A stretch of DNA of 64,000 nucleotides from Parcubacteria group bacterium GW2011_GWA2_47_26. Its GTDB lineage: Bacteria > Patescibacteriota > Patescibacteriia > GWA2-47-26. The notes below the pieces were generated by a model. It was not told where the DNA came from, did no database searches, and was given only the letters and a program-made list of their open reading frames with translations. The DNA lies in the NCBI GenBank assembly GCA_001001705.1, contig LCOG01000002.1, positions 20,056 through 84,055 of the forward strand, read 5' to 3'. The translations under genes were made by a program, and so were the position numbers. Below, piece after piece: positions 3,259 through 58,933 of the stretch (position 1 is its first letter; each line of letters starts with the position of its first letter).

Positions 3259-3335
3259 CAGCCTGACCCCGCCAAAGCGGGGGAAGGATCCCCAGCATAC
3301 AAGAATGAGATTCTTCACTATGTTCAGAATGACAC
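3259..3335. repeat. Family A palindromic element (degenerate copy) upstream of pilin gene
   Basis: GTCAGCCTGA...GGAAGGATCCCC...GATTCTTCACTATGTTCAGAATGACA. Confidence 0.5.
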
Positions 3336-3388
3336 TATCAAAGCGCGGGCCTGCCCACCGAGTGTTACGGGGCGAAGCGCCGAACGGT

Positions 3389-3868
3389 ATGTGCGGCGGG
3401 ACGAGAGGCGGGTTTACTTTAGTGGAGCTCCTTATTGCTATCGCGATTATTGGAATTCTCTCCACCGTGGCAACCGTGTCCTTGACCAAAGCCCGTCGTC
3501 ATGCGCGGGATACAAAACGGGCTTCGGATATCCAGCAGATGCGCAATGCTTTGCTGATTTATTCTAATCAAAAGGCGGGTTATCCAGATGGGTCGGTTAC
3601 AGAATGTACTACTATAGGATGTGTTTTGGGCGAGGGGCAGGCACAATGTCTTGATGATTCCGTGGCCGGATTACATGCGTCCGGTACTTGCGACGGCCTA
3701 ATCATTATGCAGCGGGTTCCTAAAGAAATAGTGGCTACCCACCCGCCATATCGTTATCTGAAAACGGCGACAGGATATACGATTAGTTTTACATTGGAAG
3801 GTGCGGTTGGAGATTTATCGGGCGGCAATTGTATTGCGAAACCGGAAAATATAACATGTAGTCCGTAA
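3389..3868 (+). CDS. Type IV pilin (prepilin with class III signal)
   Basis: Leader MCGGTRGG then mature end FTLVELLIAIAIIGILSTV; ORF track extends 5' to 3155 but the pilin leader starts at ATG 3389. Confidence 0.75.
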   Translation: MCGGTRGGFTLVELLIAIAIIGILSTVATVSLTKARRHARDTKRASDIQQMRNALLIYSNQKAGYPDGSVTECTTIGCVLGEGQAQCLDDSVAGLHASGTCDGLIIMQRVPKEIVATHPPYRYLKTATGYTISFTLEGAVGDLSGGNCIAKPENITCSP

Positions 3869-3942
3869 AGGTCTTTATGTTCTGGCAAAAATTCATGGCT
3901 TAAGCCGATTTTTGCTAGAACAATCAGAAAGGGGGTGAGATA

Positions 3943-4476
3943 ATGAAGAAACAAACATACAAGAAAGGGTTTACTTTGATCGAGCTATTGGTGGTAATTG
4001 CCATTATCGGAATCTTATCAACCTTAGCCGTTATCTCACTGGGTAACGCCAGAACAAAAGCACGTGATTCCAAGAGACTTTCGGATATGCGCAGTGTAGA
4101 GAGTGCTTTGGAAATTTATTACACGGATCAGCAGGCGTATCCAGTAGCCGCCACTACCAATCCATGTCTTATAGCCACGAGCATTGAGAATTGTTGTTTG
4201 AATAATATTTCCGGGGCAGAAGGTGGTTGGAAAACCGCCGGCAACTGCACAGGGGGTTCTACCCTGATAACAGTTCCGAACGATCCTAGAAACACAGGGA
4301 CATGGGATAACTACGTTTATTTGCGACCAGATGCCAATACTTATTCTGTTGAATTTGCTCTAGAAGCGGATCCTGATAGCACTGGTCCACTTGTGATTAC
4401 GTCATCTACCACAACGACAAACTGTCTCTCATCAGGAGGTATGACTGCAAATACAGGCGCGGCAGGATGTCCGTAG
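3943..4476 (+). CDS. Type IV pilin (major pilin candidate)
   Basis: MKKQTYKKG|FTLIELLVVIAIIGILSTLAV classic prepilin N-terminus with Glu at +5; strong GGGTGAG RBS upstream. Confidence 0.85.
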   Translation: MKKQTYKKGFTLIELLVVIAIIGILSTLAVISLGNARTKARDSKRLSDMRSVESALEIYYTDQQAYPVAATTNPCLIATSIENCCLNNISGAEGGWKTAGNCTGGSTLITVPNDPRNTGTWDNYVYLRPDANTYSVEFALEADPDSTGPLVITSSTTTTNCLSSGGMTANTGAAGCP

Positions 4477-4568
4477 TCAGAGTCATAAGATGTATATGTG
4501 AAAGTAAAGGATCGCCCATACACAGGGGCGGTCCTTTTGTGGTACACTACAGATGTAGAACAACTGTT

Positions 4569-5504
4569 ATGAATATAATTTTTGTCATAATACTTGGCCT
4601 TGTCGTGGGCAGTTTTTTGAATGCCTATATTTTTCGTTTGCATAGAAGTACAACTCTTAACCCTTCCCTGCATAACCCCCTCCAACTCCCCCTTATCTTA
4701 AGGGGGAGAGATCGATCACCCCCCCCTCTTAGGATAAGAGGGGGTGAGGGGGAGTTACGAAGTGTCTGGCGCGGCAGGTCATACTGTCCAAAATGTAAAA
4801 AACCCTTAGCCTGGTATGAACTGATTCCAGTTCTGTCGTTTATTTTACAGTTGCGCCGTTGTCGCGGCTGTAAGCAAAGGATTGATTGGCAGTACCCGGT
4901 GGTGGAGTTGAGTACGGCAGTTCTGTTTGTGCTGGCTTATCTAGCACAAAGAATTATGAATCAGGCCGTAATTCATGATTTCCTATTCCTGATTCAACAA
5001 CTGGTAGCCTGGTACTTGCTTTCCGTCCTTGTCATCCTTTTCGTTTTTGATCTCCGCTATGGCCTAGTGCCGGATAGAATGGTGTTGCCTGCGATTGTGA
5101 TAGCGTTTTTTAGCATGGTCATCCTAAATGCAGTGAAGGATCCCATGATTCCCGATATAGACGGGATTCTTCGCTTCGCTCAGAATGGCACAAACCTCTA
5201 CGTTCTCTTAGCCATCGCTGTCGGCGCCGGATTTTTTGCTTTACAATACTACGCTTCAAAAGGCCGCTGGCTTGGCGCTGGCGATATTCGTATTGGCGCT
5301 TTAATGGGAGCAATGTTGGGCTGGCCGCTGATTATTGAGGCACTGGTTCTATCCTACATGATCGGCGGAGTCGTTGGACTGCTATTGATTGCAACAGGTA
5401 AAAAGCGTTTTGGCCAAACTGTGCCTTTAGGAACATTTTTAACTCTGGGCACAGCAATAACTTTTTTATATGGCGAACAAATTTGGCATTGGTATTGGGG
5501 ATAA
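4569..5504 (+). CDS. pilD: Prepilin peptidase PilD (A24 family); carries an in-frame family E palindromic element
   Basis: CPKC...CRGC tetracysteine motif before multiple TM helices, A24 peptidase core; ORF track starts at 4467 but hydrophobic N-terminus MNIIFVIILGLVVGSF starts at ATG 4569. Confidence 0.8.
   Translation: MNIIFVIILGLVVGSFLNAYIFRLHRSTTLNPSLHNPLQLPLILRGRDRSPPPLRIRGGEGELRSVWRGRSYCPKCKKPLAWYELIPVLSFILQLRRCRGCKQRIDWQYPVVELSTAVLFVLAYLAQRIMNQAVIHDFLFLIQQLVAWYLLSVLVILFVFDLRYGLVPDRMVLPAIVIAFFSMVILNAVKDPMIPDIDGILRFAQNGTNLYVLLAIAVGAGFFALQYYASKGRWLGAGDIRIGALMGAMLGWPLIIEALVLSYMIGGVVGLLLIATGKKRFGQTVPLGTFLTLGTAITFLYGEQIWHWYWG
4671..4766. repeat. Family E element (two hairpin units) within pilD
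   Basis: CATAACCCCCTCCAACTCCCCCTTATCTTAAGGGGGAGAG...CCCCCCCTCTTAGGATAAGAGGGGGTGAGGGGGAGTTACGAAGTG. Confidence 0.8.
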
Positions 5505-6144
5505 TGGGCGCGGGCCTGCCCGACTGAAATTTCTGCCGTGCAAAAATTTGGGTGGTTTTACTTTGGCAGAAGTTTTAGTAGCGATGTTTATTTTTACTGT
5601 TATCACAACAGCGGTGGTTGTTAATTATCGAGTGGGCGATCGCAATACTGAATTACGTCTTGCCGCAGAAGAAGTCGCCTCGTTTATTCGCAATGCGCAA
5701 ATTATGGCCCAAGCCGGGCGGACGATAAAATTATGCGTAAGCGGTGGTGTTCAGGACAGAGTATGCGAAGGAGCCGTGGGAGTTTGTAGTGGTGGAACAA
5801 CCTGCAGTGATCAAACGCCACGCGGCGGTTATGGAATATTTTTGCAGGCTGCTAGTACCCCCCCGATATTTTTTGCAAATAGCATAAATCCAGACGAAAG
5901 AAGTTATAATGAAGGCGAAAATGTACCGACTATTAGACTACAACTTCCTTCAAAAATTAGCATCGCATCAATTAATCCGTCGTTACCGCTCACGATCGTC
6001 TTTGCACCGCCACGGCCGCGGACCTGGATAAATAATAACAGTGACATTGTAGAGGCACGCATCATCTTACAGCATGCCGATACTGGTGCGACACGTACCG
6101 TAATTATCAAAAGCGTGAGCGGCAGAATAGAAGTTAATCCGTAA
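5470..6144 (+). CDS. Pseudopilin / minor pilin (GspH/FimT-like); true start possibly TTG at 5539 giving leader MGG|FTLAEVL
   Basis: GGFTLAEVLVAMFIFTVITTAVV prepilin motif. Confidence 0.65.
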   Translation: MANKFGIGIGDNGRGPARLKFLPCKNLGGFTLAEVLVAMFIFTVITTAVVVNYRVGDRNTELRLAAEEVASFIRNAQIMAQAGRTIKLCVSGGVQDRVCEGAVGVCSGGTTCSDQTPRGGYGIFLQAASTPPIFFANSINPDERSYNEGENVPTIRLQLPSKISIASINPSLPLTIVFAPPRPRTWINNNSDIVEARIILQHADTGATRTVIIKSVSGRIEVNP

Positions 6145-6262
6145 TCCCGTTAGAAGCCGCGGTCGCGTTATTATCTGGCACAATATTTATGCAGAGGGTC
6201 AATTTTACCAAAATAAATCTAACCGGCAGGGCGGAGAGACCGCAACCTGCTTCTCACGGGAT
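6144..6262. repeat. Family B hairpin element filling the intergenic junction and ending on the AT of the next start codon
   Basis: ATCCCGTTAGAAGCCGCGGTCGCG ... GAGACCGCAACCTGCTTCTCACGGGAT|G. Confidence 0.75.
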
Positions 6263-6848
6263 GAAAAAAGGACAAGGACTGTTGGAAACCATTGTCGCGC
6301 TTGGCATTATTATGACCGGGCTTATGGCTACGATTACTCTTGTGATTTCTAATTTGCGCGCGCAGCGCGATAGCGCGAGCCGGCTTGTTGCGGTAAATTT
6401 GGCGCGCGAGGGTGTTGAGGTCGTGCGAGCAATTCGGGATACGAATTGGCTTGCTGGGAGTGATACTTGGGCAGGTATTCTGCGGGGTAGCGACACCACG
6501 GCCGTGCTCCAGTTTGAGCCATCGACCTTGAGCTACGAGCTCAACTATGACCCGTCCGGTATAGACAATGTGCAAGCGCAAATTTGTAAATCCAGCGTCG
6601 AAGACCACAGAGGAGTGTATGTTCAGCCGGGGCCATGTGGTCGTCCTGGTTTAGAACCTACGCGATTTCGGCGCCTTCTTAATGTAACGAGTATAAAGTG
6701 CCGTGACGATGGCGCTTTGAGTGTCGCATGTGTTGAACTGGGGTCTGATACTGTAGTGGGTATAACAGTGAATTCTGCTGTGCGATGGGACGAAGGCGGA
6801 CAAACAAAAAATGTGGAAATTATAGAAAAGCTATATGACTGGCGGTAA
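6261..6848 (+). CDS. Pseudopilin (PilV/PilW-like minor pilin)
   Basis: MKKGQG|LLETIVALGIIMTGL prepilin-like N-terminus with Glu+5; ORF track start 6189 lies inside the repeat element, ATG 6261 is the likely start. Confidence 0.6.
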   Translation: MKKGQGLLETIVALGIIMTGLMATITLVISNLRAQRDSASRLVAVNLAREGVEVVRAIRDTNWLAGSDTWAGILRGSDTTAVLQFEPSTLSYELNYDPSGIDNVQAQICKSSVEDHRGVYVQPGPCGRPGLEPTRFRRLLNVTSIKCRDDGALSVACVELGSDTVVGITVNSAVRWDEGGQTKNVEIIEKLYDWR

Positions 6849-7416: not shown

Positions 7417-7499
7417 GTATGAAATTTATAATGAAGAATATAGAATGTAAAATGGACGGGCCTGCCCGCCGAGTGTTATGGGGCGAAGAACCGAATGGC

Positions 7500-8294
7500 A
7501 TGCGCGGCGGGGCGAGAGGCGGGTACTCTCTGCTTTTGGCTTTGCTCATTACTGCGTCAGTCGCGGCGGCGTCTTCGGCGTTGGCGCGAATTATTGTGGC
7601 GGAAATCCGGCAGACTCGTTTTGTGGATAATGCCATTGTGGCGCAAGCCGCGGCCGAAAGCGGAGGAGAGCTGGGATTATTTCTGTTAAGAAAGACAAAC
7701 TATTTCAATAATCCACTCATTGCCGAGGCTATCTTGTCTCCCATTTCTATTGATACCGCTGGAGGTATCAGAGCAAGTGTAGTGGTTAGACCAACAGAAA
7801 CGCTACCAGTCTTTACCATTAGACAGAATGACTTCATCTCTTTTGCCATCCCTAATACTAGCCGCGCCCCACATCAAATAAACATCGCTTGGCGACCACT
7901 TGATCCAGTGGCCTGTGGTTCTAGTTGGATAGAAGTGGCACAGACGGTCTGGGATCCAGAAGATTTTTCAACTACTTACAATGCATGGCGTCAGCCGTAT
8001 TCCGCTCCTGCGAGAGCCACTGAAACTGTCGCAGTGCCTTTATTTTTAAGATCCAGAGGCGGACCGCGTGCTTTAGCGGTTGAGGAGTTGCGCATCAAGG
8101 CACTTTATTGTGATATTGCAGAATTACGTATCACCCCCTCTGAGCTATCCTCACGTGTTACTATTAATGCAATAGGCGAATATCGCGATTCAAAACAAGC
8201 CTTTAACATCGTCGCTCCCCGCAGTGCGCCTTTAGGCGGGTTGTTTGATTTTGTACTCTTTTCAGAAAGTGAGCTTAAAAAAGGAGTGGACTAA
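7500..8294 (+). CDS. Pilin-like protein with atypical N-terminus (PilX-like candidate)
   Basis: MRGGARGG|YSLLLALLITASVAAA hydrophobic helix after a leader similar to that of the 3389 pilin; conserved upstream nucleotide block. Confidence 0.5.
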   Translation: MRGGARGGYSLLLALLITASVAAASSALARIIVAEIRQTRFVDNAIVAQAAAESGGELGLFLLRKTNYFNNPLIAEAILSPISIDTAGGIRASVVVRPTETLPVFTIRQNDFISFAIPNTSRAPHQINIAWRPLDPVACGSSWIEVAQTVWDPEDFSTTYNAWRQPYSAPARATETVAVPLFLRSRGGPRALAVEELRIKALYCDIAELRITPSELSSRVTINAIGEYRDSKQAFNIVAPRSAPLGGLFDFVLFSESELKKGVD

Positions 8295-8308
8295 ATTATG
8301 GGGTAATG

Positions 8309-10469
<2,161 letters not shown>

Positions 10470-10489: not shown

Positions 10490-12355
10490 GTGATACATAT
10501 TATGCTTTCATCAGTTGATGAAATAAAAATACGACTGGATATTGTTGATTTTATTTCGACGTATGTGCAGTTAAAAAGAGCAGGCGCCAATTTTAAGGCG
10601 CTTTGCCCTTTTCATACTGAAAAAACGCCATCATTCATGATCTCCAAGGCAAAGCAGATGTGGTACTGTTTTGGTTGTAATGAAGGCGGGGATATTTTTA
10701 AGTTTTTAATGAAGATGGAAGGATTGGATTTTCCCGAAGCCCTAAAAATTTTAGCGGATAAGGCCGGGGTGGAGTTGCCCAAATACGACAAGCGGCTTGA
10801 AAGTCAAAAAAATACTCTACTAGAAATTCTGCGGCTAGCAGTAGAATTTTATTCAAAACAGTTGCATGCTCCGGCAGGACAGTCGGCTTTGAATTATTTG
10901 CAAAGGCGCGGTTTATCCGAAAATGTGATCAATCAGTTTGCCTTAGGTTATGCGCCGGATTCTTGGGATGCTCTTACTAACACCTTGCGTGCGCGATTTA
11001 AACCTGAAGACATATTTGCAGCCGGCCTTGTTGTGAAGAAAAATAGGGACGTTTCTAATTTTGCAAAGCAAAATTTAGAGACGTCCCATTTTTCCTCGTA
11101 CTACGACCGTTTTCGTCATCGGATTATGTTTCCCATCCGTGATGTCAACGGCAATGCAGTGGGCTTTACAAGTCGGCTTTTGGACGAGAAACGCGCTGAA
11201 GGCAAGTATATTAATACCCCCGAAACCATGCTCTACAACAAAAGCCGCGTGCTTTATGGGTTGGATTTAGCGCGCCAAGCTATGCGCCAATTGAATTACG
11301 CCGTGATTGTAGAGGGCAATATGGACGTGATTGCCTGCCATCAGTTTGGCATGTCTAATGTGGTGGCCGCCTCCGGCACTGCCATGACCATCGATCATCT
11401 TAGATTGCTCAAACGCTATACAAATAATCTTGCCATTGCCTTTGATGCTGATCCGGCTGGCGTCAGTGCCGCGAAACGCGGTATTGATCTTGCTCTGCAA
11501 GAAGGAATGAGGGTCAAGATTATTACAATTCCCAAAGATTGCGGCAAGGATCCCGATGAATGTATTCGTAAGAATAAAAAGGCTTGGGCCATTGCAGTTG
11601 GTGCGGCTCGCGAAGTCATGGATTATTATTTGGAGCGTGCAACTCGCAATTTTGATATAAAAACCGCAAAGGGTAAATCCGATTTTGCCAATCTCCTAAT
11701 GACCGAAATTAAAAAATTGCCGGATTTGATAGAACAAGATTTTTGGTTGAAAAAAGTTGCCGAGGCCTTGCGCGTTGATGATAAGTTATTGCGGGAGCAG
11801 ATGGCAAGAGTTGGTAACGCCCCTCAACCTCCTCTTAAGTTAAGAAAGGGAGTTACGCGTGAGGTGCCGGCAGAGACTAATATGCGCCCGAGGGCCGAGC
11901 TACTTTCGGAACGACTGCTTGCCCTTTTTCTGGCCGTGCCGCAATACGCGGAAAGCATCATTGAAGCTGTGCTTCCGGAGATGTTTTGTCCCGCGGGCAA
12001 TCAAGACCTTTACACCCAACTTGTGCAATGTTATACTGCTTATAATTCACAAGGCTCCGCTTCGGCGGGGGCTGATTTCAGCCAATTTTGGCATAACTGG
12101 TGCGTAAATCACGCACCAGAACTTTCATCCACAGCCGCTATTCTTGAACTTTATAAAGACAAGGAGTTTGCGGGTTGGGACGACATCCAGTTAAGGCGGG
12201 AAAAAAATTTTTTAACTAAAGAAATTCGGCGCGAATATTTACACAAGCGCCGTTTTGAGCTTACCGAAGCAATGCGCCAAGCCGAGAAAGAGGATGATAA
12301 AGCGCAGGTGGCTGAACTTACCCGCGAATTTGAGGCGCTTGCGGCGCAAGAATAG
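10490..12355 (+). CDS. dnaG: DNA primase DnaG (in-frame family F and E elements)
   Basis: CPFHTEKTPSF...CFGC zinc-binding domain, TOPRIM region. Confidence 0.9.
   Translation: MIHIMLSSVDEIKIRLDIVDFISTYVQLKRAGANFKALCPFHTEKTPSFMISKAKQMWYCFGCNEGGDIFKFLMKMEGLDFPEALKILADKAGVELPKYDKRLESQKNTLLEILRLAVEFYSKQLHAPAGQSALNYLQRRGLSENVINQFALGYAPDSWDALTNTLRARFKPEDIFAAGLVVKKNRDVSNFAKQNLETSHFSSYYDRFRHRIMFPIRDVNGNAVGFTSRLLDEKRAEGKYINTPETMLYNKSRVLYGLDLARQAMRQLNYAVIVEGNMDVIACHQFGMSNVVAASGTAMTIDHLRLLKRYTNNLAIAFDADPAGVSAAKRGIDLALQEGMRVKIITIPKDCGKDPDECIRKNKKAWAIAVGAAREVMDYYLERATRNFDIKTAKGKSDFANLLMTEIKKLPDLIEQDFWLKKVAEALRVDDKLLREQMARVGNAPQPPLKLRKGVTREVPAETNMRPRAELLSERLLALFLAVPQYAESIIEAVLPEMFCPAGNQDLYTQLVQCYTAYNSQGSASAGADFSQFWHNWCVNHAPELSSTAAILELYKDKEFAGWDDIQLRREKNFLTKEIRREYLHKRRFELTEAMRQAEKEDDKAQVAELTREFEALAAQE
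11041..11095. repeat. Family F hairpin element within dnaG
   Basis: AAATAGGGACGTTTCTAATTTTGCAAAGCAAAATTTAGAGACGTCCCATTTTTCC. Confidence 0.75.
11820..11859. repeat. Family E single unit (degenerate) within dnaG
   Basis: CCCCTCAACCTCCTCTTAAGTTAAGAAAGGGAGTTACGCGTG. Confidence 0.55.
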
Positions 12356-16402: not shown

Positions 16403-16440
16403 ATTATCACTTTTCATGCGGCCGCATGAAAAGTGATAAT
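16403..16440. promoter_or_regulatory. 38-bp perfect palindrome ATTATCACTTTTCATGCGGCCGCATGAAAAGTGATAAT, candidate operator for the downstream ArsR-family regulator
   Basis: Perfect dyad symmetry, 75 bp upstream of the ArsR-type gene, no T-run after it. Confidence 0.5.
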
Positions 16441-16803: not shown

Positions 16804-16923
16804 TCCCGTTAGAAGCCGCGGTCGCGATACATTGGAGAGCTAAATATTATGCAAAAGGTCTATATTATAACAACAAACATTAACCAGCAGATCGGGAAGA
16901 CCGCGACCTGCTTCTAACGGGAT
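16804..16923. repeat. Family B element between the ArsR-family gene and nifS, ending on nifS ATG
   Basis: TCCCGTTAGAAGCCGCGGTCGCG ... GAAGACCGCGACCTGCTTCTAACGGGAT|G. Confidence 0.8.
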
Positions 16924-18331: not shown

Positions 18332-18369
18332 TTTTGCAGAGCAAAATTTAGAAGTGGTCCCTTTTTCCT
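18313..18369. repeat. Family F element containing the nifS stop codon and the iscU ORF 5' end
   Basis: GAAAAAAGGACCGCCTCTAATTTTGCAGAGCAAAATTTAGAAGTGGTCCCTTTTTCC. Confidence 0.8.
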
Positions 18370-26807: not shown

Positions 26808-26816
26808 GGTATGCAA

Positions 26817-40140: not shown

Positions 40141-40228
40141 TCCCCCTTAGGTTAAGGGGGAGTGAAAGGGGGTTACGAGACGCTCATAACCCTCCCCAGC
40201 CCTCCCTTAACTTAAGGGAGGGAGAAAG
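40141..40228. repeat. Family E double unit, intergenic upstream of htpX
   Basis: TCCCCCTTAGGTTAAGGGGGAGTGAAAGGGGGTTACGAG...CATAACCCTCCCCAGCCCTCCCTTAACTTAAGGGAGGGAG. Confidence 0.7.
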
Positions 40229-40234
40229 ATTCAC

Positions 40235-44140: not shown

Positions 44141-44218
44141 TCCATACGAAAGTACGAAATATTACGAAAGATACGAAAAATTTTCGTATCTTTCGTAGCG
44201 CAGTTTTCGTAATTTCGT

Positions 44219-45576: not shown

Positions 45577-45654
45577 TGTCATTCTGAGCGAAGCGAAGAA
45601 TCCCGTGGAAAATGAACGGGATCCTTCACTACGCTACGCTCCGTTCAGGATGAC
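45577..45654. repeat. Family A element, intergenic rseP-pheS
   Basis: GTCATTCTGAGCGAAGCGAAGAATCCCGTGG...GGGATCCTTCACTACGCTACGCTCCGTTCAGGATGAC. Confidence 0.8.
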
Positions 45655-45687: not shown

Positions 45688-46821
45688 ATGGAGCTATCTA
45701 AATTAAAAGATAAAGCTCTGCGCGACATTGCGAAAATAGATAGTGTTGAGCGGCTGGAGGCATTGCGCATTCACTATCTTGGCCGCAAAGGAGAAGTGAC
45801 CAAACTTTTTACAACCCTGCCTAAATTAAACGAGGAGGAGCGCAAAATACGCGGGCAAGAGTTGAATGTGCTCAAGCGGGAGATTGAAAAAGTGCTATTG
45901 GCACGTGGCAAAACCCTAGAGCATGAGAAATTAGGCACGCTTGTCAAGGCCGAAAAATTGGATGTGACGCTTCCGGGTGCGCGGCCGTCGCTCGGGCATC
46001 TGCATATTACAAGTCAAGCCATAGAAGAGATCAGCCGTATTTTTGCGCAAATTGGTTTTAACCGCGTGCGCTATCCTGAAATTGACTGGGATTATTATGC
46101 GTTTGAAAGTTTAAATATGCCCAAAGGGCATCCCGCGCGCGATGAGTGGGAGACGTTTTTCATGCCATGGGAACATCCGCGCTTGGGGCGTATGGTCTTG
46201 ACTCCGCATACATCTAATGGCCAAGTGCGTGAAATGGAGAGGAGAAAGCCGCCAATTCGCATGACCAATATTGCGAAATGCTATCGCCGCCAGTCCGATA
46301 TATCGCACGTGCCCATGTTTCATCAATTTGAAGGTTTGCTTGTAGATCGCGCGGTGTCCGTGGCTAACTTAAAGGGTACTCTTGATTACTTTGCGTGCGC
46401 GTTTTTTGGTCCGGATCGCAAAATCCGTTTGCGGCCATTTCATTTTCGTTTCACAGAACCGTCATTTGAGGTGGATGTATCGTGCGGCGTGTGCGGTGGA
46501 ACCGGATTTGTTTTTAACCCCTCCCAACCTCCCCTTAACCTAAGGGGAGAAGAGCAATCGGAACCCCCTCTTAGATTAAGAGGGGGCGTGGGGGAGTTAC
46601 AAGAGCGGTGTAGACTTTGCAAATCCGGCTGGCTTGAGCTGGGCGGCGCTGGCATGGTGCATCCCAATGTGTTAAAAGCTGGCGGGCTTGATCCTAAAGA
46701 GTGGCGCGGTTTTGCGTTTGGCTGGGGTGTGGAGCGCACTTATATGATGAAAGCGGGATTGAGGATAGATGACATTCGGGTTTTGTATAGCAATGACTTG
46801 AGTTTTTTAGAACAATTCTGA
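45688..46821 (+). CDS. pheS: Phenylalanyl-tRNA synthetase alpha subunit (in-frame family E element)
   Basis: Class II aaRS motifs 2 and 3 (FRFTEPSFEVDV, GFAFGWGVERT). Confidence 0.9.
   Translation: MELSKLKDKALRDIAKIDSVERLEALRIHYLGRKGEVTKLFTTLPKLNEEERKIRGQELNVLKREIEKVLLARGKTLEHEKLGTLVKAEKLDVTLPGARPSLGHLHITSQAIEEISRIFAQIGFNRVRYPEIDWDYYAFESLNMPKGHPARDEWETFFMPWEHPRLGRMVLTPHTSNGQVREMERRKPPIRMTNIAKCYRRQSDISHVPMFHQFEGLLVDRAVSVANLKGTLDYFACAFFGPDRKIRLRPFHFRFTEPSFEVDVSCGVCGGTGFVFNPSQPPLNLRGEEQSEPPLRLRGGVGELQERCRLCKSGWLELGGAGMVHPNVLKAGGLDPKEWRGFAFGWGVERTYMMKAGLRIDDIRVLYSNDLSFLEQF
46516..46602. repeat. Family E double unit within pheS
   Basis: AACCCCTCCCAACCTCCCCTTAACCTAAGGGGAGAAG...CCCCCTCTTAGATTAAGAGGGGGCGTGGGGGAGTTACAAGAG. 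Confidence 0.8.
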
Positions 46822-46894: not shown

Positions 46895-49609
46895 ATGAAC
46901 TTATCGGTTTCCTACAAATGGTTAAAAGAATATTTGCCCGGACTTAAGGCTGACCCGGAAGAGGTGGCGGCCAAATTGTCCCTGCATTCTTTTTCTGTTG
47001 AACGCTGGCAGAGAACGGGAGAAGGACTTAATGAGCGTATTGTGGTTGGAAAAATTAAAAAAATCGAACAACATCCCAATGCGGATAAGTTGAAAGTTGC
47101 GCATGTGCAAGTCAGTCCACAGTCGACAATCGACAGTTCACAGAAAATTGTTTGTGGCGGTACGAATATCCGCGAGGGACAGCTCGTGGCTTTGGCATTG
47201 TCGGGCGCAAAGGTGCGTTGGCACGGGGAAGGGGAGTTGATTGAACTCAAGCCCACAGAGATTCGCGGAGTCCGAAGCGAAGGCATGATTTGCGCGGCTA
47301 ATGAAATTGGTTTATTTGAAATGTTCCCGCATAAGGAGAGGGAAATTTTGGATTTAACCGCGACCGGTGCGCAAGTTGGCGTGCCGCTTGCCAAAGCGCT
47401 TGGGTTAGATGACACGATTTTTGAGGTTGAAGTAACTACCAATCGTCCTGATGCAATGGGGATAGTGGGCTTGGCAAGAGAGGTAGGGGCGATTTTTGGC
47501 GTGCCGTTGAAGTTGCCGCAGATTAAGCAGATTAAGCAGATTAAGCAGATTAAGCAGATTAAGCAGTTGGAGGTGCGCATAGAGACTTCCAAACTTTGCC
47601 CGCGCTATATCGCCGTCATGATGGAAGGCATTAAAGTAGCGCCTTCGCCTTGGTGGCTGCAGAGAAAATTAATTGCAAGCGGAATTAGGCCGATAAATAA
47701 TTTGGTGGATATTACAAACTATGTTCTTTTAGAATATGGCCAGCCGTGTCATGCGTTTGATGCGGGGAAATTGAGCGACGGAAGTGACCATGCCACTGCC
47801 GTAGGCGCAACACGTGGCCTGGTCACGGAGAGCTGTTCCATTGTAGTCCGCATGGCTAGGAAAGGAGAAAAGATTTTAGCATTGGATGGAAATACGTATG
47901 GTCTTGACGAAAATATTTTGGTGATTGCTGATGCAAAGCGACCAGTGGCGATTGCAGGAATTATGGGAGGAGAGGAAACAGGCGTACATGCAGATACAAC
48001 GCGCATTGTGTATGAGATTGCGAATTTTGATCCGATTACGGTGCGCAAGGGTGAGCATCAATTGGCGCTTACCAGTGATTCTTCCGCGCGGTTTAATAAA
48101 GGTTTGCCAGTGAAGTTATCAGAATATGCCGCGGCGAGGTTGATTGAACTAACCAAAGAGGTGGTGGGTGGTGAAGTCATGGGTGTGGTTGACAAGAAAT
48201 CTCTACGCCGTCATCCTGAATGCAGTGAAGGATCCCGTGGAAGTAAGAACGGGATTCCTCGCGGAGTGCAACCCCGCACCGAACTCCGTTCTGGTGCGTG
48301 GGCTCGGAATGACAAGCTAGTTGTAGCTGTGTCTCCGCAAGATGTGGCGCAAAACATCGGCATTGATATTCCAAGAGCGCAAATGAAAAAATATCTTACT
48401 GCTTTAGGATTTAAGGTTAGCGGTTCAGCTAAAAAATGGTCAGTTGCGTTTCCTTACTGGCGCACAGTTGAGGCTGATGGAGTGGCTGATATCTCTGAAG
48501 AAGTAGCGCGGATGTATGGGTATCATAATCTGCCAAGTGTTTTGCCAGCAGGCACTTTGCCAGACGAGGCGCCCAATCCGGATTTTGCCCATGAGCAAAC
48601 AGTCAAAGATATACTGCGCGGCGCAGGCTTTACCGAGTTATATACTTACTCATTTGTCTCATCTGACGATATAATCAAAGCTGGCCTTGACGCAGGTGAG
48701 GACGCCGCAGCAATTGCTAATCCGCTCACTTCGGAGCTTACGCACATGCGGCCATGGCTTGGCATTTCTATATTGCGCGCGATTGAGAAAAATCAGACGA
48801 TGGCTGATGTGCTTAAGTTTTTTGAATTATCAAATGAATACCATCCCCGTCATAGCGGTCATTCCGAGCCCGCGCACCAGAGCGAAGCTCGGTGCGGGGT
48901 TTTACTCCGCGAGGAATCCCGTGCTTTACAGAACGGGATCCTTCGTCGCATTGCTCCTCAGGATGACACTGCGTGTCAACTGCCTGAAGAACGTCAAAAA
49001 CTTATCGTGGCGGGAGCGGGCAAGGAAGAACACGACGGAGAAAATTTTTATATTATAAAAGGTTTAGCCGAATATTTGGCCGTAACTCTAGGCTTGCCAA
49101 AATTGAGCTTTGTGCCAGCCCCAAAAAGCTCCGCGCTGTATAAATGGTTCCATCCGGCGCGGGTTATATGGTGTAAAGCAGGCGAAGATTTTCTGGGCCC
49201 GTTGGGCGAGGCGCACCCGACACTGCTTAAGGCCTTTGGCATCACGCGCCGTGTGGCTTTTCTAGACTGGGAAATTAAAGCGCTTTTTCCCTTGATTGGC
49301 AAAGGGCGTGTCTATAAATCTCCTCTAGCATATCCGCCAGTCAAACGCGATGTTGCGTTTATTGTGTCTAAATCTGTACAATATGCAAGTATCTTGGAGA
49401 CTATAGTAAAGCTTGATCCACTGATTTATGAAGTTGAGCTTTTTGACCAATACGAAGGCAAAGGCGTACCTGCGGATTCCAGAAGTTTAGCTTTTCACAT
49501 AACCTATGCCAGTTATGAACGCACCCTGACTGCGGAAGAAGCAGAACGTGTGCATGACAAGCTCACGAAAATTTTAAAGGAAAAATTTGACGCAAAAGTG
49601 CGCGAGTAA
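46895..49609 (+). CDS. pheT: Phenylalanyl-tRNA synthetase beta subunit (tandem QIK repeat, family D and two family A elements in frame)
   Basis: N-terminal tRNA-binding OB fold, B3/B4, FDX-ACB C-terminal domain. Confidence 0.9.
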   Translation: MNLSVSYKWLKEYLPGLKADPEEVAAKLSLHSFSVERWQRTGEGLNERIVVGKIKKIEQHPNADKLKVAHVQVSPQSTIDSSQKIVCGGTNIREGQLVALALSGAKVRWHGEGELIELKPTEIRGVRSEGMICAANEIGLFEMFPHKEREILDLTATGAQVGVPLAKALGLDDTIFEVEVTTNRPDAMGIVGLAREVGAIFGVPLKLPQIKQIKQIKQIKQIKQLEVRIETSKLCPRYIAVMMEGIKVAPSPWWLQRKLIASGIRPINNLVDITNYVLLEYGQPCHAFDAGKLSDGSDHATAVGATRGLVTESCSIVVRMARKGEKILALDGNTYGLDENILVIADAKRPVAIAGIMGGEETGVHADTTRIVYEIANFDPITVRKGEHQLALTSDSSARFNKGLPVKLSEYAAARLIELTKEVVGGEVMGVVDKKSLRRHPECSEGSRGSKNGIPRGVQPRTELRSGAWARNDKLVVAVSPQDVAQNIGIDIPRAQMKKYLTALGFKVSGSAKKWSVAFPYWRTVEADGVADISEEVARMYGYHNLPSVLPAGTLPDEAPNPDFAHEQTVKDILRGAGFTELYTYSFVSSDDIIKAGLDAGEDAAAIANPLTSELTHMRPWLGISILRAIEKNQTMADVLKFFELSNEYHPRHSGHSEPAHQSEARCGVLLREESRALQNGILRRIAPQDDTACQLPEERQKLIVAGAGKEEHDGENFYIIKGLAEYLAVTLGLPKLSFVPAPKSSALYKWFHPARVIWCKAGEDFLGPLGEAHPTLLKAFGITRRVAFLDWEIKALFPLIGKGRVYKSPLAYPPVKRDVAFIVSKSVQYASILETIVKLDPLIYEVELFDQYEGKGVPADSRSLAFHITYASYERTLTAEEAERVHDKLTKILKEKFDAKVRE
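47518..47566 (+). repeat. Tandem 9-nt repeat (CAGATTAAG x5) inside pheT encoding QIKQIKQIKQIKQIK
   Basis: Direct reading of sequence; motif shared with family H hairpins. Confidence 0.85.
47784..47826. repeat. Family D element within pheT
   Basis: GTGACCATGCCACTGCCGTAGGCGCAACACGTGGCCTGGTCAC. Confidence 0.75.
48210..48313. repeat. Family A element within pheT (copy 1)
   Basis: GTCATCCTGAATGCAGTGAAGGATCCCGTGG...GGGATTCCTCGCGGAG...CGGAATGAC. Confidence 0.75.
48859..48968. repeat. Family A element within pheT (copy 2)
   Basis: GTCATTCCGAGCCCGCGCACCAGAGCGAAGCTCGG...GGGATCCTTCGTCGCATTGCTCCTCAGGATGAC. Confidence 0.7.
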
Positions 49610-50044: not shown

Positions 50045-50160
50045 TATTAAGCCCTGTGCAGGCGTAATCCATGCAACTTGTAACATATAGCATGAAACCC
50101 GAGAGCATAGTCAATTGCAATCTTGTGTTTCATGTTACAGGCTACATGTTGTGTGTATCA
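50045..50160. repeat. Family G-related element upstream of rplJ
   Basis: ...CTTGTAACATATAGCATGAAAC...CTTGTGTTTCATGTTACAGGCTACATGTTGTG shares the TGTAACAT / CAGGCTACATG motifs. Confidence 0.55.
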
Positions 50161-55323: not shown

Positions 55324-55407
55324 TTAGAGGTGGTAAAATTACACAAAAGCAGTCCCGCAACCGCGGGACTGCTTTTGTGTTGGAAGAATAAGGGACCGTT
55401 GCCGAAT

Positions 55408-55480
55408 GTCATCCTGAGCGCAGCGAAGGATCCCGAGCATCTAAAAAATAACGGGATTCTTCACTTCATTCAGAATGACA
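55408..55480. repeat. Family A element, intergenic
   Basis: GTCATCCTGAGCGCAGCGAAGGATCCCGAG...GGGATTCTTCACTTCATTCAGAATGAC. Confidence 0.8.
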
Positions 55481-55595
55481 ATGGAAAAAATTATATTCGG
55501 CAACAGTCCCATTAAGACAAGACGAAGCAAGCTCTAAAACTCTCGTTCCGAAATTGACACGATCGTGTCAATTTCGGGATAGCCTGCGGGACCGA

Positions 55596-55660
55596 AAAAG
55601 AGAACACTTCTAAATTTTGCAAAGCAAAATTAGAGGCGTTCTCTTTTTCGGCGTTCTCTT
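55596..55660. repeat. Family F element with right-arm duplication, intergenic
   Basis: GAAAAAGAGAACACTTCTAAATTTTGCAAAGCAAAATTAGAGGCGTTCTCTTTTTCGGCGTTCTCTTTTTCC. Confidence 0.7.
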
Positions 55661-55666
55661 TTTCCA

Positions 55667-57967
55667 CTATTTTTTCAGGTGGGGCATTGTGAAAGATATA
55701 ACGTCAGCGCCTCTTAGTATGTACGCGATTTTCTGCCCTTCGTTTATCGCAAAGTCTTTGAGGTTAGTGAAAGTTTGGCTTGTATATTGCGCTTTTAGTG
55801 TGCCATTATCTTTGTTAAAAACAACGAGTCGATTTCCGCTCTGGTTTAATATGTAAAGATATTGTGAGGCTTCGTTAGTCCACAGTTTCGTGGCTTGCGT
55901 AAGCACCGGGTCAATATTTTTAAGCGCAAAATTTGTTTTTAGACCTTTGCGAAATTCTGTTACATTGCCTGATTCATCAAGAACATAGGCTGTGCCGTCC
56001 ACCGTCAGCGCCAAAGCAGTGTTAATTGCGGTTCTATCTTTTATCCAGGCCGCGCCGGAGTTAAAACCCTGCGCCATGGGCTCGTACTTATAAATCTGAT
56101 TCTCACTCGGGTGCAATGTATAAAGCCGACGATTGTATATGGTCGCATCGCGCGCTCCACTGCGTAGTGTTCTAGGTTCACCTAGCTTATTCTCTGCGTA
56201 ATTATAAATATAAGCTCTGTCACTGTTAATTAATAGGAGTGCGTTACGCTGGGGATGAGCAAGCATTACGTTCAATGCGGTTATATTTTCTGGTGTAAAT
56301 TTTTGTGTTACATTATTTTGCGACCAGACTAACGCATTTGTGCTATAAGCAAAAAGCGCATTATCTTTCAAAAAAATCCCTTTGGCCTCTGGCAGTAGCT
56401 CGCGAAGATCAAGTACTGTTGTTGGATTTTCTATAACGATAATGTGGCGCAGCCGTTCTTCTACGCCCTGCAAGGCAGCAACCAACATGCTGGTTTCGTT
56501 TTCGTCTGCCGCTGATTTTAAATAACGCAAAGGAATATTTGCCGTTACTTGTCTTTTAAACGCGGATAAATTTTGCAAGCGCGCTTTTGCTTCTTCAATT
56601 TGCAAGCGCGCTTGTTCCTCGTTATTGTAAATTAGTGATGCGCTCGCCGTATCTATTAGGGTTTGTATGCCCGTAATCTCGGTTTGCAGTTGATTTTCTG
56701 CCGATCTTATTATCCCTCTGCGGTTGGCAAAAAGCACGCTCTCGCTAAAAACGAAAATTAGGGTAAGAAGGGCAATGAAGATTATTTTGCTTTTAAGCGA
56801 AAGGCCGTTGAATTTATTGGCTAGATAGTTTACTTTTGTTCTGAAAAGAAAGAGCAGTTTCTGTTTGAGCAGTTTCATGTCTGTAGCGCGCGCAAACCGC
56901 GCCAAAATTTTCTGGCGAAAACTTGTGTTGGCAATTGAAACACGTGTCCTTTGTATAATCTGCGCCGCCTTTTGCGGGTATTTGGCAAGGCGGATAAAAT
57001 ACGAAGATATTGTTCTATGTTTTAAGGGTGTCGTTGGAATAGGTGGAGCCGTTGTAGCTATGGCTTTACGCGTCTCTTTAATTGGAATGGCTATTGTGTT
57101 TTTAATAGTCTTTAATTTATTCCCGAATTTATTATTAAAGTGATCAAAAAAAACTGTCAAGGTTTTCTGGGTTTGATGTACAGAGGCTTGTATTGATTGT
57201 AGAAATGGTTTTAAAAGCGGCGGCGAGAGCATTTCTTCAGTGCGAGCTTCGGTTTTAAGCAGAGTAGCGATAGATGACCCCGTTGATTCAGTTGGGCGCA
57301 GAACTTGCGGTTTTGCCTCCAATAAAACAGCCCGGAAAATTGGCGGCTGTACATTCCGCGTTTCAATGCTTCGCCTAATAGAGGCGAGTTTATTTTCGGA
57401 ACTGCGTGAACGCGCGATCTCTTTTAAGTCGTTGGATTTTAAAAGGGGAGACAGATGTTTGGAAACCACAAGCAGATAAGCATGCGGCGCCAAAACTCCA
57501 TTATGAAAATTGCTGAAATGAAGCGGCCCGCTTGCCCCCATTTCTCCAAAATTGCTGATTGCATTGCCGCTGACGTGGAGTACGGCTATCTCGCCGGAGC
57601 TCGTGAAAAACAATTGTGTTCCCGAAACGATGCCAAGACTGGCATGGATGCGCGGCAGGTCGTGGGCTCGTTCTTTAATTTTATTTTCAAAAATGGCAAG
57701 TTTTTTTTCAAAAAATTGTTCGGCTTGTGTACGATCTACTGGAATATACTCAAAAGCCGTTGCCAGACGCAAAGCGTAGTCAAAGAGATCGTTGGCCGCT
57801 TCGCGATCTTGTGAGGATAGTGCCTCCAGCTCGGCGTCGTTGAAACCGAAAAGTCCAAAGAATTGAGTCTCCGTTGAGAATTTTCCGCGGCGCACTACCG
57901 ACGTCCACGCCGAGAAGGCGCGATGGTGTATTGTGGTCTCAATGTGGATAGTTAATCTTTGGTTCAT
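55667..57967 (-). CDS. Hypothetical bitopic membrane protein (766 aa)
   Basis: Long ORF with central TM; start codon abuts a family B element. Confidence 0.5.
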   Translation of the reverse strand: MNQRLTIHIETTIHHRAFSAWTSVVRRGKFSTETQFFGLFGFNDAELEALSSQDREAANDLFDYALRLATAFEYIPVDRTQAEQFFEKKLAIFENKIKERAHDLPRIHASLGIVSGTQLFFTSSGEIAVLHVSGNAISNFGEMGASGPLHFSNFHNGVLAPHAYLLVVSKHLSPLLKSNDLKEIARSRSSENKLASIRRSIETRNVQPPIFRAVLLEAKPQVLRPTESTGSSIATLLKTEARTEEMLSPPLLKPFLQSIQASVHQTQKTLTVFFDHFNNKFGNKLKTIKNTIAIPIKETRKAIATTAPPIPTTPLKHRTISSYFIRLAKYPQKAAQIIQRTRVSIANTSFRQKILARFARATDMKLLKQKLLFLFRTKVNYLANKFNGLSLKSKIIFIALLTLIFVFSESVLFANRRGIIRSAENQLQTEITGIQTLIDTASASLIYNNEEQARLQIEEAKARLQNLSAFKRQVTANIPLRYLKSAADENETSMLVAALQGVEERLRHIIVIENPTTVLDLRELLPEAKGIFLKDNALFAYSTNALVWSQNNVTQKFTPENITALNVMLAHPQRNALLLINSDRAYIYNYAENKLGEPRTLRSGARDATIYNRRLYTLHPSENQIYKYEPMAQGFNSGAAWIKDRTAINTALALTVDGTAYVLDESGNVTEFRKGLKTNFALKNIDPVLTQATKLWTNEASQYLYILNQSGNRLVVFNKDNGTLKAQYTSQTFTNLKDFAINEGQKIAYILRGADVISFTMPHLKK

Positions 57968-58075
57968 CCCGTTAGAAGTTTAAGAATAATTTTCTTTTAA
58001 GTACCCGCTAGACGTCAGTCGGCTTCGCCTACTGTTTTTCGTATACGAATGTCGTGCTTAAACTTCTAACGGGAT
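57966..58075. repeat. Family B-like divergent element abutting the start codon of the minus-strand 766-aa gene
   Basis: CAT|CCCGTTAGAAGTT ... CTTAAACTTCTAACGGGAT; reverse complement reads CTTCTAACGGGATGAAC exactly as at nifS. Confidence 0.6.
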
Positions 58076-58130
58076 TGACGCGACTGTATTTTTAGTATAC
58101 TATAGATGAAGATATTGTAAAGATAAGCCT

Positions 58131-58766
58131 ATGCGCAAGCGCGCGTCACTCGAACAAATTTTTGGCTCAAGGGTCCGTGTGAGACTGCTCAAGCTTTTTT
58201 TAGAGCATCCCGATGATCGTTTCTATGTCCGTGAGATAACGCGGCTGACACGGTCGCATATTCATTCAGTACGGCGCGAACTTGCGAATCTGTCCAAGGT
58301 TGGACTGGTGCGGATTTACATTGATAAAAATGCAAACGGCGGCATTACTTACAAAAACAGCGCAAATAATTTACAGCGCAAATATTATGAAGTTAATCCC
58401 GAGTGTGTAATTTTTAACGAGCTACGATTACTGTTAATCAAAGGACAGCTTTTGCTCCAAGAAGAACTTGCGAGGCAACTGTCTGCGGCGGGCGCGGTTA
58501 ATTACTTAGCCTTGACTGGATTTTTTGCCGATCTTCAAGGATTGCCAACTGATCTGCTTTTAATAGGCCGCGTTAGTAAAAAGAAATGCGCGAAATCAAT
58601 AGAAGATTTTGAAGAAGAATTCGGGCGCACCATTAATTATACGATTTTGACCTTGAAAGAATTTTTGGAGCGCAAGGAAATGACCGATCGCTTTCTTTAT
58701 ACGCTGCTGGAGTCAAAAAAAATTGTTCTTGTAGATAAACTGCCCGTCTCGTCGCGCATTGGCTGA
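58131..58766 (+). CDS. Putative winged-helix transcriptional regulator
   Basis: N-terminal wHTH-like region (VRVRLLKLFLEHPDDRFYVREITRLT). Confidence 0.4.
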   Translation: MRKRASLEQIFGSRVRVRLLKLFLEHPDDRFYVREITRLTRSHIHSVRRELANLSKVGLVRIYIDKNANGGITYKNSANNLQRKYYEVNPECVIFNELRLLLIKGQLLLQEELARQLSAAGAVNYLALTGFFADLQGLPTDLLLIGRVSKKKCAKSIEDFEEEFGRTINYTILTLKEFLERKEMTDRFLYTLLESKKIVLVDKLPVSSRIG

Positions 58767-58781
58767 TTGTGTTGAAGTGCC

Positions 58782-58933
58782 GTCATTCTGAGGAGTCCCG
58801 CAGGCGCGGGACGACGAAGAATTTCGCACGAATCCCGTTAGAGATCGCGGACGCAGTCCGCGTCCTATCTCTAAACGGGACGAATGTGCGGAATCTCGCA
58901 TACGCGAGAGATCCTTCACTGCGTTCAGGATGA
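58782..58933. repeat. Composite element: family A termini enclosing a CCGTTAGAG...CTCTAAACGG hairpin (family C-like)
   Basis: GTCATTCTGAGGAGTCCCGCAGGCGCGGGACGACGAAGAAT...CCCGTTAGAGATCGCGGACGCAGTCCGCGTCCTATCTCTAAACGGGACG...GATCCTTCACTGCGTTCAGGATGAC. Confidence 0.7.

Follow-up and report, generated by a model that had tools for sequence, protein, structure and literature searches.

The 64,000-nucleotide (nt) stretch of Parcubacteria group bacterium GW2011_GWA2_47_26 analysed here (contig LCOG01000002.1, positions 20,056 to 84,055; hereafter the window) carries 59 copies of short repeats, most of them hairpin-forming palindromes, which together occupy 3,946 nt (6.2% of its length). In-frame interruptions by these hairpin repeats affect about a quarter of its genes, essential ones included. 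We consider it likely that they represent several families of small non-autonomous selfish repeats, of the type of REPINs (inverted doublets of repetitive extragenic palindromic (REP) sequences) or MITEs (miniature transposable elements with inverted repeats), which have multiplied in a genome of the Candidate Phyla Radiation (CPR) related to Candidatus Uhrbacteria. We infer their mobility from their copy number, their presence and absence among species, nesting, half copies and the occurrence of families in other genomes.

Census and anatomy of the repeat families

We compared the window with itself by BLASTN, which yielded 55 repeated intervals (3,611 nt in total), and nhmmer profiles of the families recovered the copies with E-values down to 4e-35. 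An earlier reading of this DNA, made from the sequence only, had proposed more than 50 recurrences of at least seven unrelated families. The number of recurrences is borne out by the 59 copies; the multiplicity of families stands in so far as at least six appear unrelated in sequence, whereas E and F share their termini. The copies fall into families A (11), B (8), C (7), D (9), E (3) and F (4), the minor families G (3), H (3), I (2), J (2) and K (2), and five singleton palindromes. Family A elements are about 72 nt long (GTCATCCTGAGCGAAGCGAAGGATCCCG...CGGGATTCTTC...CTCAGAATGAC), those of family B about 88 nt (TCATAACCCCTCCC..CCCCTTAnnTAAGGGG..; half copies 43 nt), the C unit is 56 nt, D elements are 36-46 nt (inverted pairs of GTGACCAAGTCAC, in two sub-types), and E and F measure about 79 nt and about 121 nt, respectively. 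When folding was compared with shuffled sequences, most copies gave z-scores of -4 to -10, so the description of the repeats as hairpin-forming holds for most of them but not for the G copy in PheT, which is a tandem 9-nt repeat; the half copy of B at 11813, the F copy at 26816 and families I and K were also poor folders.

An element of family A, B or D consists of two small hairpins in inverted orientation, a doublet. Every family A arm has the form ATYCT-GA-[hairpin]-GA-AGRAT, with GCGNAGC as the simplest inner hairpin and a longer G+C-rich hairpin in many arms. The Y6-R22 pair is kept in 46 of 47 arms; the arms found with the profile have T-A in 23 cases, C-G in 21, T-G in 2 and C-A in 1. 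One C-G arm and one T-A arm were combined in 19 of the 22 family A elements, indicating that the arms are conserved as individual hairpins and that the element has polarity. Both halves of B contain the CCCCTTAnnTAAGGGG hairpin, and half copies of B exist. A single D arm, GTGACCAAGTCAC, is a palindrome by itself. Terminal inverted repeats were found in A (TGTCAT.../...ATGACA), in B (TCATAAC.../...GTTATGA) and in E and F (ATCCCGTTAGAAG / CTTCTAACGGGAT, including the shared terminus CCCGTTAGARG), the interiors of E and F being unrelated. A small E/F hairpin is nested inside a terminus of the F copy at 26816, a B and a C copy abut in RecG, and C lies within C in two further loci (L042 and L032). 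Such nested, abutting and half copies can be read as signs of repeated insertion.

The core of the simplest family A arm, GA-GCGNAGC-GA, resembles in sequence only the d(GCGNAGC) mini-hairpins that Hirao et al. reportedly described in the early 1990s, with a GNA triloop and sheared G-A pairs. As in those mini-hairpins, the middle loop base is free (C in 35, A in 31, G in 18 and T in 13 of the IMG/VR matches listed) and the closing pairs are conserved; unlike them, many A arms carry a longer G+C-rich hairpin in place of the mini-hairpin. A hammerhead-like reading of CUGA...GAA in the A arm was rejected on inspection, the core UGA and G8 being missing.

Placement of the copies in open reading frames

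Of the 59 copies, 29 lie wholly within open reading frames (ORFs), 19 are intergenic and 11 run across an ORF end. The in-ORF density is about 0.45 copies per kb, and intergenic DNA makes up 11% of the window yet holds 32-51% of the copies. All 29 copies within ORFs are stop-free, which agrees with the proposal that most copies in coding sequence keep the ORF open; each sits in a stop-free frame of its family, with the host frame kept and the ORF intact on both sides. The elements themselves are no more ORF-open than random windows: per copy, 2.4 of the six frames are open in A, 1.1 in B, 2.0 in C and 0.5 in F, against 2.1-3.4 in random windows of the same length. Inspection of the family C consensus showed a single open frame, and none of the F copies lies wholly within an ORF, three running across ORF ends and one being intergenic. 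The frame usage, the exclusion of F and the intergenic excess together indicate a selection filter on the translated sequence; judging from the reading frames, the in-ORF copies are evidently translated and filtered by selection.

Such a filter argues against any removal of the elements before translation. Strong hairpins could in principle promote translational bypassing, and CPR bacteria reportedly carry insertions in their rRNA genes, an observation attributed to Brown et al. 2015. Removal or skipping of the elements before the protein is made, whether by intron-like excision, RNA processing or bypass, would need no filter on frames and stop codons, yet all copies wholly within ORFs are stop-free and keep the host frame; no ribozyme or intron family was matched either, and we regard this explanation as highly improbable.

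Several copies are less certain as parts of genes than the earlier reading had assumed, although most of its in-gene assignments stand. Those at 3133..3168 (family D, between PilC and a pilin-like gene), 3257..3333 (family A, E=7e-12 in nhmmer, within the long ORF 3155-3868) and 3346..3413 (family I, + strand) precede the prepilin leader MCGGTRGG/FTLVELL and therefore probably lie 5' of the true start of the pilin-like gene. Coding status is also less certain for the E copy in the PrmC ORF (19686..19764, aa 18-44), whose membership in the coding sequence is uncertain, and for two D copies in a thioredoxin-like gene on the minus strand (37927..37962, aa 68-79; 38029..38064, aa 34-45), since these lie in N-terminal regions and lack profile support on both sides.

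In-gene copies compared with orthologues and solved structures

The host genes named earlier were recovered with the same number of copies in RecG (5), PheT (4), UvrD/PcrA (3), DnaG (2), RseP (2) and NifS (2 internal copies plus the start and stop junctions), while PilD proved to carry 2; the thioredoxin-like gene also has 2, and LigA, MurI, PheS and PrmC have one element each.

The copies in RecG are a D copy (33332..33375, aa 309-322), a half copy of B (33812..33853, aa 468-482) abutting a C copy (33855..33910, aa 483-501), a short A copy (34141..34196, aa 578-596) and a second C copy (34377..34432, aa 657-675). We aligned RecG with 18 homologues, and the results showed that all five element-coded segments are missing from distant Parcubacteria. 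In an AlphaFold2 model, segments 311-321, 466-495, 577-596 and 658-672 were predicted as coil with a predicted local distance difference test (pLDDT) score <50. These low-confidence coils correspond exactly to the D, B+C, A and C copies and lie between the secondary-structure elements of the helicase.

PheT carries a D copy (47784..47826, aa 297-311), which corresponds to a 19-aa gap in PheT 7n8y and whose site is variable among relatives, and two composite A copies, all three of which are missing from distant orthologues. The first A copy (48210..48313, aa 439-473) gives PheT about 31 aa more than 7n8y, and relatives have a remnant or another element at the site. The second (48858..48968, aa 655-692), inverted relative to the first, is missing from all 10 other distinct PheT sequences, the 61%-identical relatives included. 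The fourth copy (family G, 47518..47566, + strand) consists of five tandem 9-nt units, read PQIKQIKQ..., and is not a hairpin. A PheT from another assembly (P0121, 99% identical) has two 9-nt GCAGATTAA units fewer (QIKQIK); no other repeat was seen to vary in length within the population.

NifS contains a D copy (17191..17236, aa 90-105, read RDQVTAAGATRDLVT), which falls in a gap of the solved cysteine desulfurase 9wep, and an E copy (17574..17652, aa 218-244). At its start codon lies the right end, CTTCTAACGGG, of an F copy (16804..16924, + strand), and a C copy at the NifS/NifU junction (18312..18367) supplies the last six NifS codons (GKKDRL) and the stop codon. UvrD/PcrA carries an A copy (15211..15286, aa 333-358), where residues 328-371 of the query stand against 309-328 of PcrA 1pjr, together with a B copy found with nhmmer (15644..15736, aa 477-508) and a C copy (15962..16013, aa 583-600). 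The A copy of LigA (8847..8924, aa 171-196) lies in a segment, aa 162-210, that is missing in E. coli LigA 2owo. Segments missing from solved homologues were thus NifS 94-106 and 222-241, LigA 162-210, about 26 residues of UvrD and three segments of PheT.

In PilD, the full B doublet (4671..4760, aa 69-98) makes the A24_N match exceed its profile by 36 aa, and the A copy (5118..5188, aa 218-241, read VILNAVKDP..GILRFAQNG) makes the Peptidase_A24 match exceed its profile by 20 aa. The MurI profile match breaks at aa 215, where a B doublet lies (43944..44030, aa 214-243), and another B doublet is found in PheS (46513..46601, aa 276-305). DnaG has a C copy (11039..11094, aa 184-202) and a half copy of B found with nhmmer (11813..11855, aa 442-456); RseP has an A copy with an enlarged hairpin in its left arm (44372..44457, aa 52-80) and an E copy (44479..44553, aa 87-112). 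A D copy (25748..25793, aa 92-107) and a D-like palindrome (26430..26470, aa 320-333) lie in orf444. From these alignments and the model, the in-gene copies appear to occupy indel hot spots and predicted surface coils, in line with their earlier description as loop insertions.

Origin of the window and copies in its relatives

The exact sequence of the window is present in several public assemblies from Rifle aquifer groundwater, one of them NCBI GCA_001001845.1 (contig LCLE01000030, Parcubacteria group bacterium GW2011_GWC2_45_7). Its closest RecG and PheT orthologues are those of Candidatus Uhrbacteria (59-65% identity), and the organism is a CPR bacterium, a relative of Candidatus Uhrbacteria. 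The stretch 9,097-29,612, which contains copies of A to F, is identical across assemblies from other samples and other assemblers (the European Nucleotide Archive (ENA), NCBI GCA_001001845.1, the Joint Genome Institute (JGI) and Logan); the sole differences are scaffold gaps and four indels, all of the latter outside the elements. In all, five independent assemblies agree on the sequence. Short-read assemblers can be misled by repeats, and gaps and a duplicated stretch are present in one scaffold (L007). Against assembly or chimera artefacts stand this identity across independent assemblies and the further copies on many other contigs, and we give such an origin virtually no credence, as the question raised with the first description of the repeats is answered by the identical stretch.

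A genome scan for relatives yielded two Uhrbacteria loci (L016 and L017), and the nearest RecG and PheT orthologues were only 61-65% identical, so distant that empty sites and target duplications are not definable at the DNA level. Both loci carry families A and B, without C to F. The RecG genes of these loci (L016 10001-12394, L017 3576-5981) have palindromes in the same loops as the window. A family absent from the window, with CCCTCTCCC...GGGAGAGGG (CCCTCTCCCAC..GGGGAGAGGGA) doublets that are read PSPTRGEGVKTNPPPLVGGVRGGG, occupies the RecG sites where the window has D and B+C, and is found twice in the L017 gene; a B-like sequence also occurs at the B site in Uhrbacteria RecG. The site of the window's A copy holds an A copy in L016 and another hairpin in L017. 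The palindromes of the relatives at the same loops indicate that the sites are permissive hot spots and that some inserts are old, and the in-frame palindromes of both loci indicate that the phenomenon spans the clade. On this comparison of sequences, some inserts appear to be lineage-specific and others common to relatives.

We also examined how the same element is read in different hosts. Family A is read VILSEAKDP...GILRFAQND in PilD, LigA and RseP and, in another frame, HPERSEGSR...RESRDSS in UvrD and RecG, and it also occurs between genes. The five peptides quoted in the sequence-only reading all occur in the translations as given there, and its attribution of peptides shared by unrelated proteins to a shared DNA palindrome is supported by the two frames and the intergenic copies of family A. 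The use of two frames, the intergenic copies and the symmetry at the nucleotide level indicate that these are DNA elements, not protein modules. It could be argued that the peptides are true protein modules, that is, lineage-specific functional loops whose DNA similarity is secondary, and some inserts do persist at the same site in hosts that are only about 63% identical (EGSRDSS..QND in RecG). The same DNA is, however, read in different frames in different hosts and is found between genes, its symmetry is at the DNA level, the segments are predicted to be disordered coil, and different families occupy the same loop among relatives; we therefore hold this explanation to be very unlikely.

Distribution of the families beyond the window

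The core pattern of family C was confined to 24 metagenome stretches, all from a few JGI groundwater metagenomes, and no viral contig had it. The window sequence is also present in two of these source metagenomes, and copies of A, B, E and F accompany C on the stretches. The distinct full-length C copies amounted to 31, the window included. Full B doublets were found in contigs classed as viral, with 55-62% G+C, from three source metagenomes, one of which (3300025309) also contains the window sequence. The G+C content of the window is 42-50%.

The arm pattern of family A, TGTCATYCTGAGCGNAGCGAAGRATCT, matched >120 stretches in IMG/VR, against an estimated chance expectation of about 0.01. Among the matches listed, the Y6-R22 pair was T-A in 58, C-G in 38, T-G in 1 and C-A in 0 (Fisher p=3e-26), and the viral contigs differ greatly in G+C content. 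Many of the listed phage arms are solo and stand 2-60 nt upstream of genes for tail sheath, portal and other structural proteins; the listed contigs often carry the arm several times in one orientation (L044-L123; for example L098 at 4231 and 7560, L065, L107, and L079 at 2006). In these phage loci the arms were not paired at 1-3 kb around a gene, and no transposase or nuclease cluster was seen near them, the recurrent neighbours being tail sheath, portal and other phage proteins.

A full A-like palindrome was also found in frame in an intact, annotated 4.6-kb pglX gene of a BREX (bacteriophage exclusion) system, on the Planktothrix agardhii plasmid NZ_LR882951.1 (16968-17044; L019 301-377), with arms identical to those of family A: GTCATCCTGAG.GAAACGAAGGATC ... 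GATTCTTCG...CTCAGAATGAC. Another weak A-like match lies under an MmeI-type restriction-modification gene. These occurrences differ from those of the window in the organisms concerned (Cyanobacteria, phages) and in that the phage copies are mostly single arms in short intergenic spacers. The presence of A and B in other genomes and in phage contigs indicates that these families are not private to the lineage of the window.

Probable mobility of the elements and a possible role as signals

If the repeats are mobile, as we think likely, the copies would spread via single-stranded hairpin intermediates. The mover would be a trans-acting enzyme encoded outside the window, perhaps a Y1/HUH transposase of the REP-associated tyrosine transposase (RAYT) kind, or the copies would arise by hairpin-driven template switching. 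Insertions would land anywhere, and selection would purge those that disrupt the frame, introduce a stop codon or fall in a structured region. The surviving in-gene set would be translated into disordered loops or, as at NifS, would supply new C-termini and stop codons, and the intergenic copies would be better tolerated and may double as 3'-end hairpins.

Several results weigh against this account. No transposase was found in the window in NCBIfam and Pfam searches, and no IS200/IS608-like Y1 transposase was found by phmmer in 1,614 ORFs from 280 kb, a search in which the TnpA queries were approximate, RAYTs are divergent and only a small part of the genome was covered. When the flanks of full-length copies (26 of A, 31 of C and 4 of B) were inspected, no target-site duplication, direct repeat or common target was seen, the only regularity being that family A copies are preceded by a T and followed by an A or G. 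Filled and empty sites were not found to be polymorphic among the population assemblies (L001-L015, and the pair L020/L037), which are 99-100% identical, so ongoing mobility is not shown directly. Translation of the elements is likewise deduced from the sequence rather than observed. The A copy in RecG is 87.5% identical between the window and L016, against 66.6% for the gene overall and 76% for the adjacent flanks, and the family A arm is near-invariant across very different genomes; these two observations are compatible both with a constraint on the hairpin and with recent insertion. The over-conservation of the RecG copy could reflect such a constraint, gene conversion from other copies or repeated insertion. 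Finally, where a C copy lies at the 3' end of a gene, the two share their orientation in 11 of 12 cases, which hints at a role or an orientation rule. Nor was a parent insertion sequence with matching termini found in the window or in the compared loci.

The co-orientation of the 3'-end C copies speaks for the main rival account, in which the hairpins of at least some families, A above all, would be functional cis-acting nucleic-acid signals, acting in termination, mRNA processing or stability, or replication or recombination, kept by selection and tolerated or exploited within coding sequences. The nearly base-identical A arm with its Y6-R22 covariation in >120 phage contigs, often solo upstream of tail-sheath and portal genes, also favours such a role, as do the RecG A copy that is more conserved than its host gene and the three start codons abutted by F-type ends. 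The tests of RNA-level function point the other way. In the window, only tRNAs reached the gathering score in Rfam 15 and no element was matched; a permissive Rfam search of four phage loci with many A arms returned only chance microRNA-like hairpin matches. A simple terminator scan did not flag the elements and itself performed barely above shuffles, and the sense-strand RNA hairpin was more stable than the antisense one in only 8 of 27 cases; no support for stabilising selection at the RNA level was found. A signal role also leaves unexplained the 29 copies at permissive loops of unrelated ORFs, the half copies and the nesting, and we consider it an unlikely explanation of the repeats as a whole, selfish insertion remaining our preferred one.

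For the family A arm in particular, we tentatively raise another possibility, which we think doubtful but worth stating: the arm may be an undescribed constrained hairpin module of phages, cyanobacteria and CPR bacteria, bound by a conserved protein, whether as the end of a mobile element or as a signal for regulation or processing, with the CPR hairpins in essential genes kept under constraint. A constraint on the arm would account for an A copy that is more conserved than RecG itself. If this were true, the in-gene copies would have a function at the nucleic-acid level, and hairpin insertion would be a regular route to new loops in CPR proteins.

Copies outside genes and neighbouring features

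The intergenic A copies lie between RseP and PheS (45578..45654), at 55408..55479 (E=5e-19 in nhmmer) and at 58782..58934, the last with nested hairpins and a minimum free energy of -77 kcal/mol (z -6.3). Intergenic B copies are a half copy found with nhmmer (35749..35792) and a doublet between orf226 and HtpX (40132..40231). A C copy with a partial left-arm duplicate (34699..34774) stands directly 3' of the RecG stop codon, and another with a duplicated right arm (55594..55662) stands 3' of orf766 (minus strand) and is co-oriented with it. A partial D copy (8307..8330) lies upstream of LigA.

Besides the copy at NifS, family F comprises a 121-nt copy in the orf224-orf219 interval (6144..6264, + strand; termini ATCCCGTTAGAAG / CTTCTCACGGGAT; E=4e-35 in nhmmer), a copy whose right terminus is interrupted by the small E/F-type hairpin and which ends at the ATG of a PrgI-like gene (26816..27021, + strand), and an F-related copy with the same termini that adjoins the ATG of orf766 (57966..58075, - strand). 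The F-type right end CTTCTAACGGG was found at 16911-16924, 27008-27021 and 57965-57978, against the ATG of NifS, the PrgI-like gene and orf766 (minus strand), respectively. A Shine-Dalgarno-like motif is missing from most genes.

Among the minor families, further G palindromes lie at the 3' end of the L10 gene (50793..50849) and between a DUF4012 gene and mreB (62708..62794). Family H palindromes occur at 28156..28245, at the 3' end of VirB4 (30114..30171) and between genes at 50060..50148, the last inverted relative to the first. The VirB4-like ATPase is split over two ORFs in different frames, 27425-28147 (N-terminal, TraC-like) and 28240-30114 (ATPase part); the H palindrome 28156-28245 fills the gap between them exactly and the second H copy stands at the 3' end, and the gene may have been split by the element or be naturally bipartite. 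The 68-nt family I copy at 3346..3413 covers the 5' region and prepilin leader of the pilin-like gene and folds into a weak hairpin; its second copy, 88% identical, lies at the 5' end of orf293 (7457..7524, + strand), and family I is probably a paralogous leader rather than a palindromic element. Family J palindromes were found in an intergenic region (24610..24643) and at the 3' end of a YerC-like gene (25295..25332). The singletons are four perfect intergenic palindromes, at 16403..16440 (between UvrD and NifS), 34873..34910, 55341..55380 and 55548..55577, and a 79-nt palindrome in the MurI-RseP interval that extends to the RseP start codon (44143..44221).

Profile searches of the window proteins against NCBIfam and Pfam showed a gene content typical of a CPR bacterium. 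The window contains a type IV pilus cluster (PilB, PilC, pilins and PilD) and encodes LigA, DnaG, RpoD, UvrD/PcrA, NifS, NifU, peroxiredoxin and PrmC, a VirB4-type secretion module, ComF, RecG, HtpX, MurI, RseP, PheS, PheT, L10 and MreB. Two identical 44-nt direct repeats (52397-52440 and 53669-53712), each consisting of AGTTATCCACATGAGATATTGCGCAAAATCGTG plus 11 further G (12 G in a row) and each containing a perfect DnaA-box-like TTATCCACA, bracket a 1.27-kb cassette of two ORFs, one of which (52480-52872) has 27-nt tandem repeats at 52537-52659. A perfect 18-nt inverted repeat (13565-13582 / 13640-13657) surrounds the tRNA-Asn gene (13576-13648), reaching some 10 nt past it at either end. 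A 45-nt in-frame indel within an ORF was seen between two versions of the same region of a related contig (L037 2497-2541 against L020 2073), outside every repeat family.

Discussion

The closest known counterpart is found in Rickettsia. The Rickettsia palindromic elements (RPEs, numbered RPE-1 to RPE-10; Ogata et al. 2000, 2002) are described as several palindromic families with members both in intergenic DNA and, in frame, in housekeeping genes, with inserts that are compatible with the protein fold and in part ancient and shared, in part lineage-specific, and Wolbachia is described as having related protein-coding palindromes (PMC10969869, PMC1779305). In-frame palindromes in essential genes have been regarded as near-unique to Rickettsia (PMC10969869). 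The repeats of the window resemble RPEs as a phenomenon, the comparison not being one of sequence: several families lie both between genes and in frame in unrelated housekeeping genes, and PheT is a host in both. They differ in that RPE units are given as 100-150 bp, against 36-120 nt here, in that the host is a CPR bacterium and not a member of the Rickettsiales, and in the hairpin-doublet architecture of A, B and D. The genome of R. conorii measures about 1.27 Mb; with the 44 gene insertions reported, this corresponds to about 0.035 in-gene copies per kb, against about 0.45 here. The proposal that the window displays the Rickettsia phenomenon at higher density and family diversity is thus upheld by the in-frame and intergenic palindromes and a roughly tenfold density, at the level of the phenomenon.

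REP sequences and their REPIN doublets are reportedly mobilised by RAYT (Y1/HUH) transposases, as attributed to Nunvar et al. 2010 and Bertels and Rainey 2011. The present repeats share with them short hairpins in many copies, two inverted hairpins with a spacer, singlet remnants, individually conserved arm hairpins and the lack of a target duplication. Unlike the present repeats, about half of which are in ORFs, REPs are extragenic by definition; the conserved GTAG-type head is missing here, and no RAYT was found in the 280 kb searched, phmmer being a weak test for it. Bacterial MITEs with occasional in-frame insertion include Correia and ERIC elements, QMITE1/2 of Coxiella and cyanobacterial MITEs (PMC10969869, PMC5896051). 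With MITEs the repeats have in common terminal inverted repeats (clearest in E/F: ATCCCGTTAGAAG...CTTCTAACGGGAT), non-autonomy, nesting and the supply of C-termini and stop codons. Most MITEs, however, measure 100-400 bp and have target-site duplications, none of which were seen here, and insertion into ORFs, exceptional for MITEs, applies to about half of the present copies. In the literature searched, whose coverage is incomplete and gives no proof of novelty, we found no description of such elements, of the arm sequence or of the peptides in CPR/Patescibacteria.

These findings have practical consequences. Peptides shared through the elements, such as SNFAKQNLEVVPF and HPERSEGSR, can create false links between protein families. 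Assemblies can be broken by the repeats, which could also be used to mark lineages or to connect phages with hosts. The widely conserved family A arm, which Rfam does not contain, offers a lead of its own towards an uncharacterised hairpin signal in many phages.

For the biology of CPR bacteria, the window presents the same outcome as Rickettsia in an unrelated, ultra-small and streamlined genome, with smaller elements at about tenfold density. This shows, again at the level of the phenomenon, that it is convergent between Rickettsia and CPR bacteria, and that genome reduction gives no protection against such elements. It also suggests that hairpin repeats are a possible major source of lineage-specific loops in CPR proteins.

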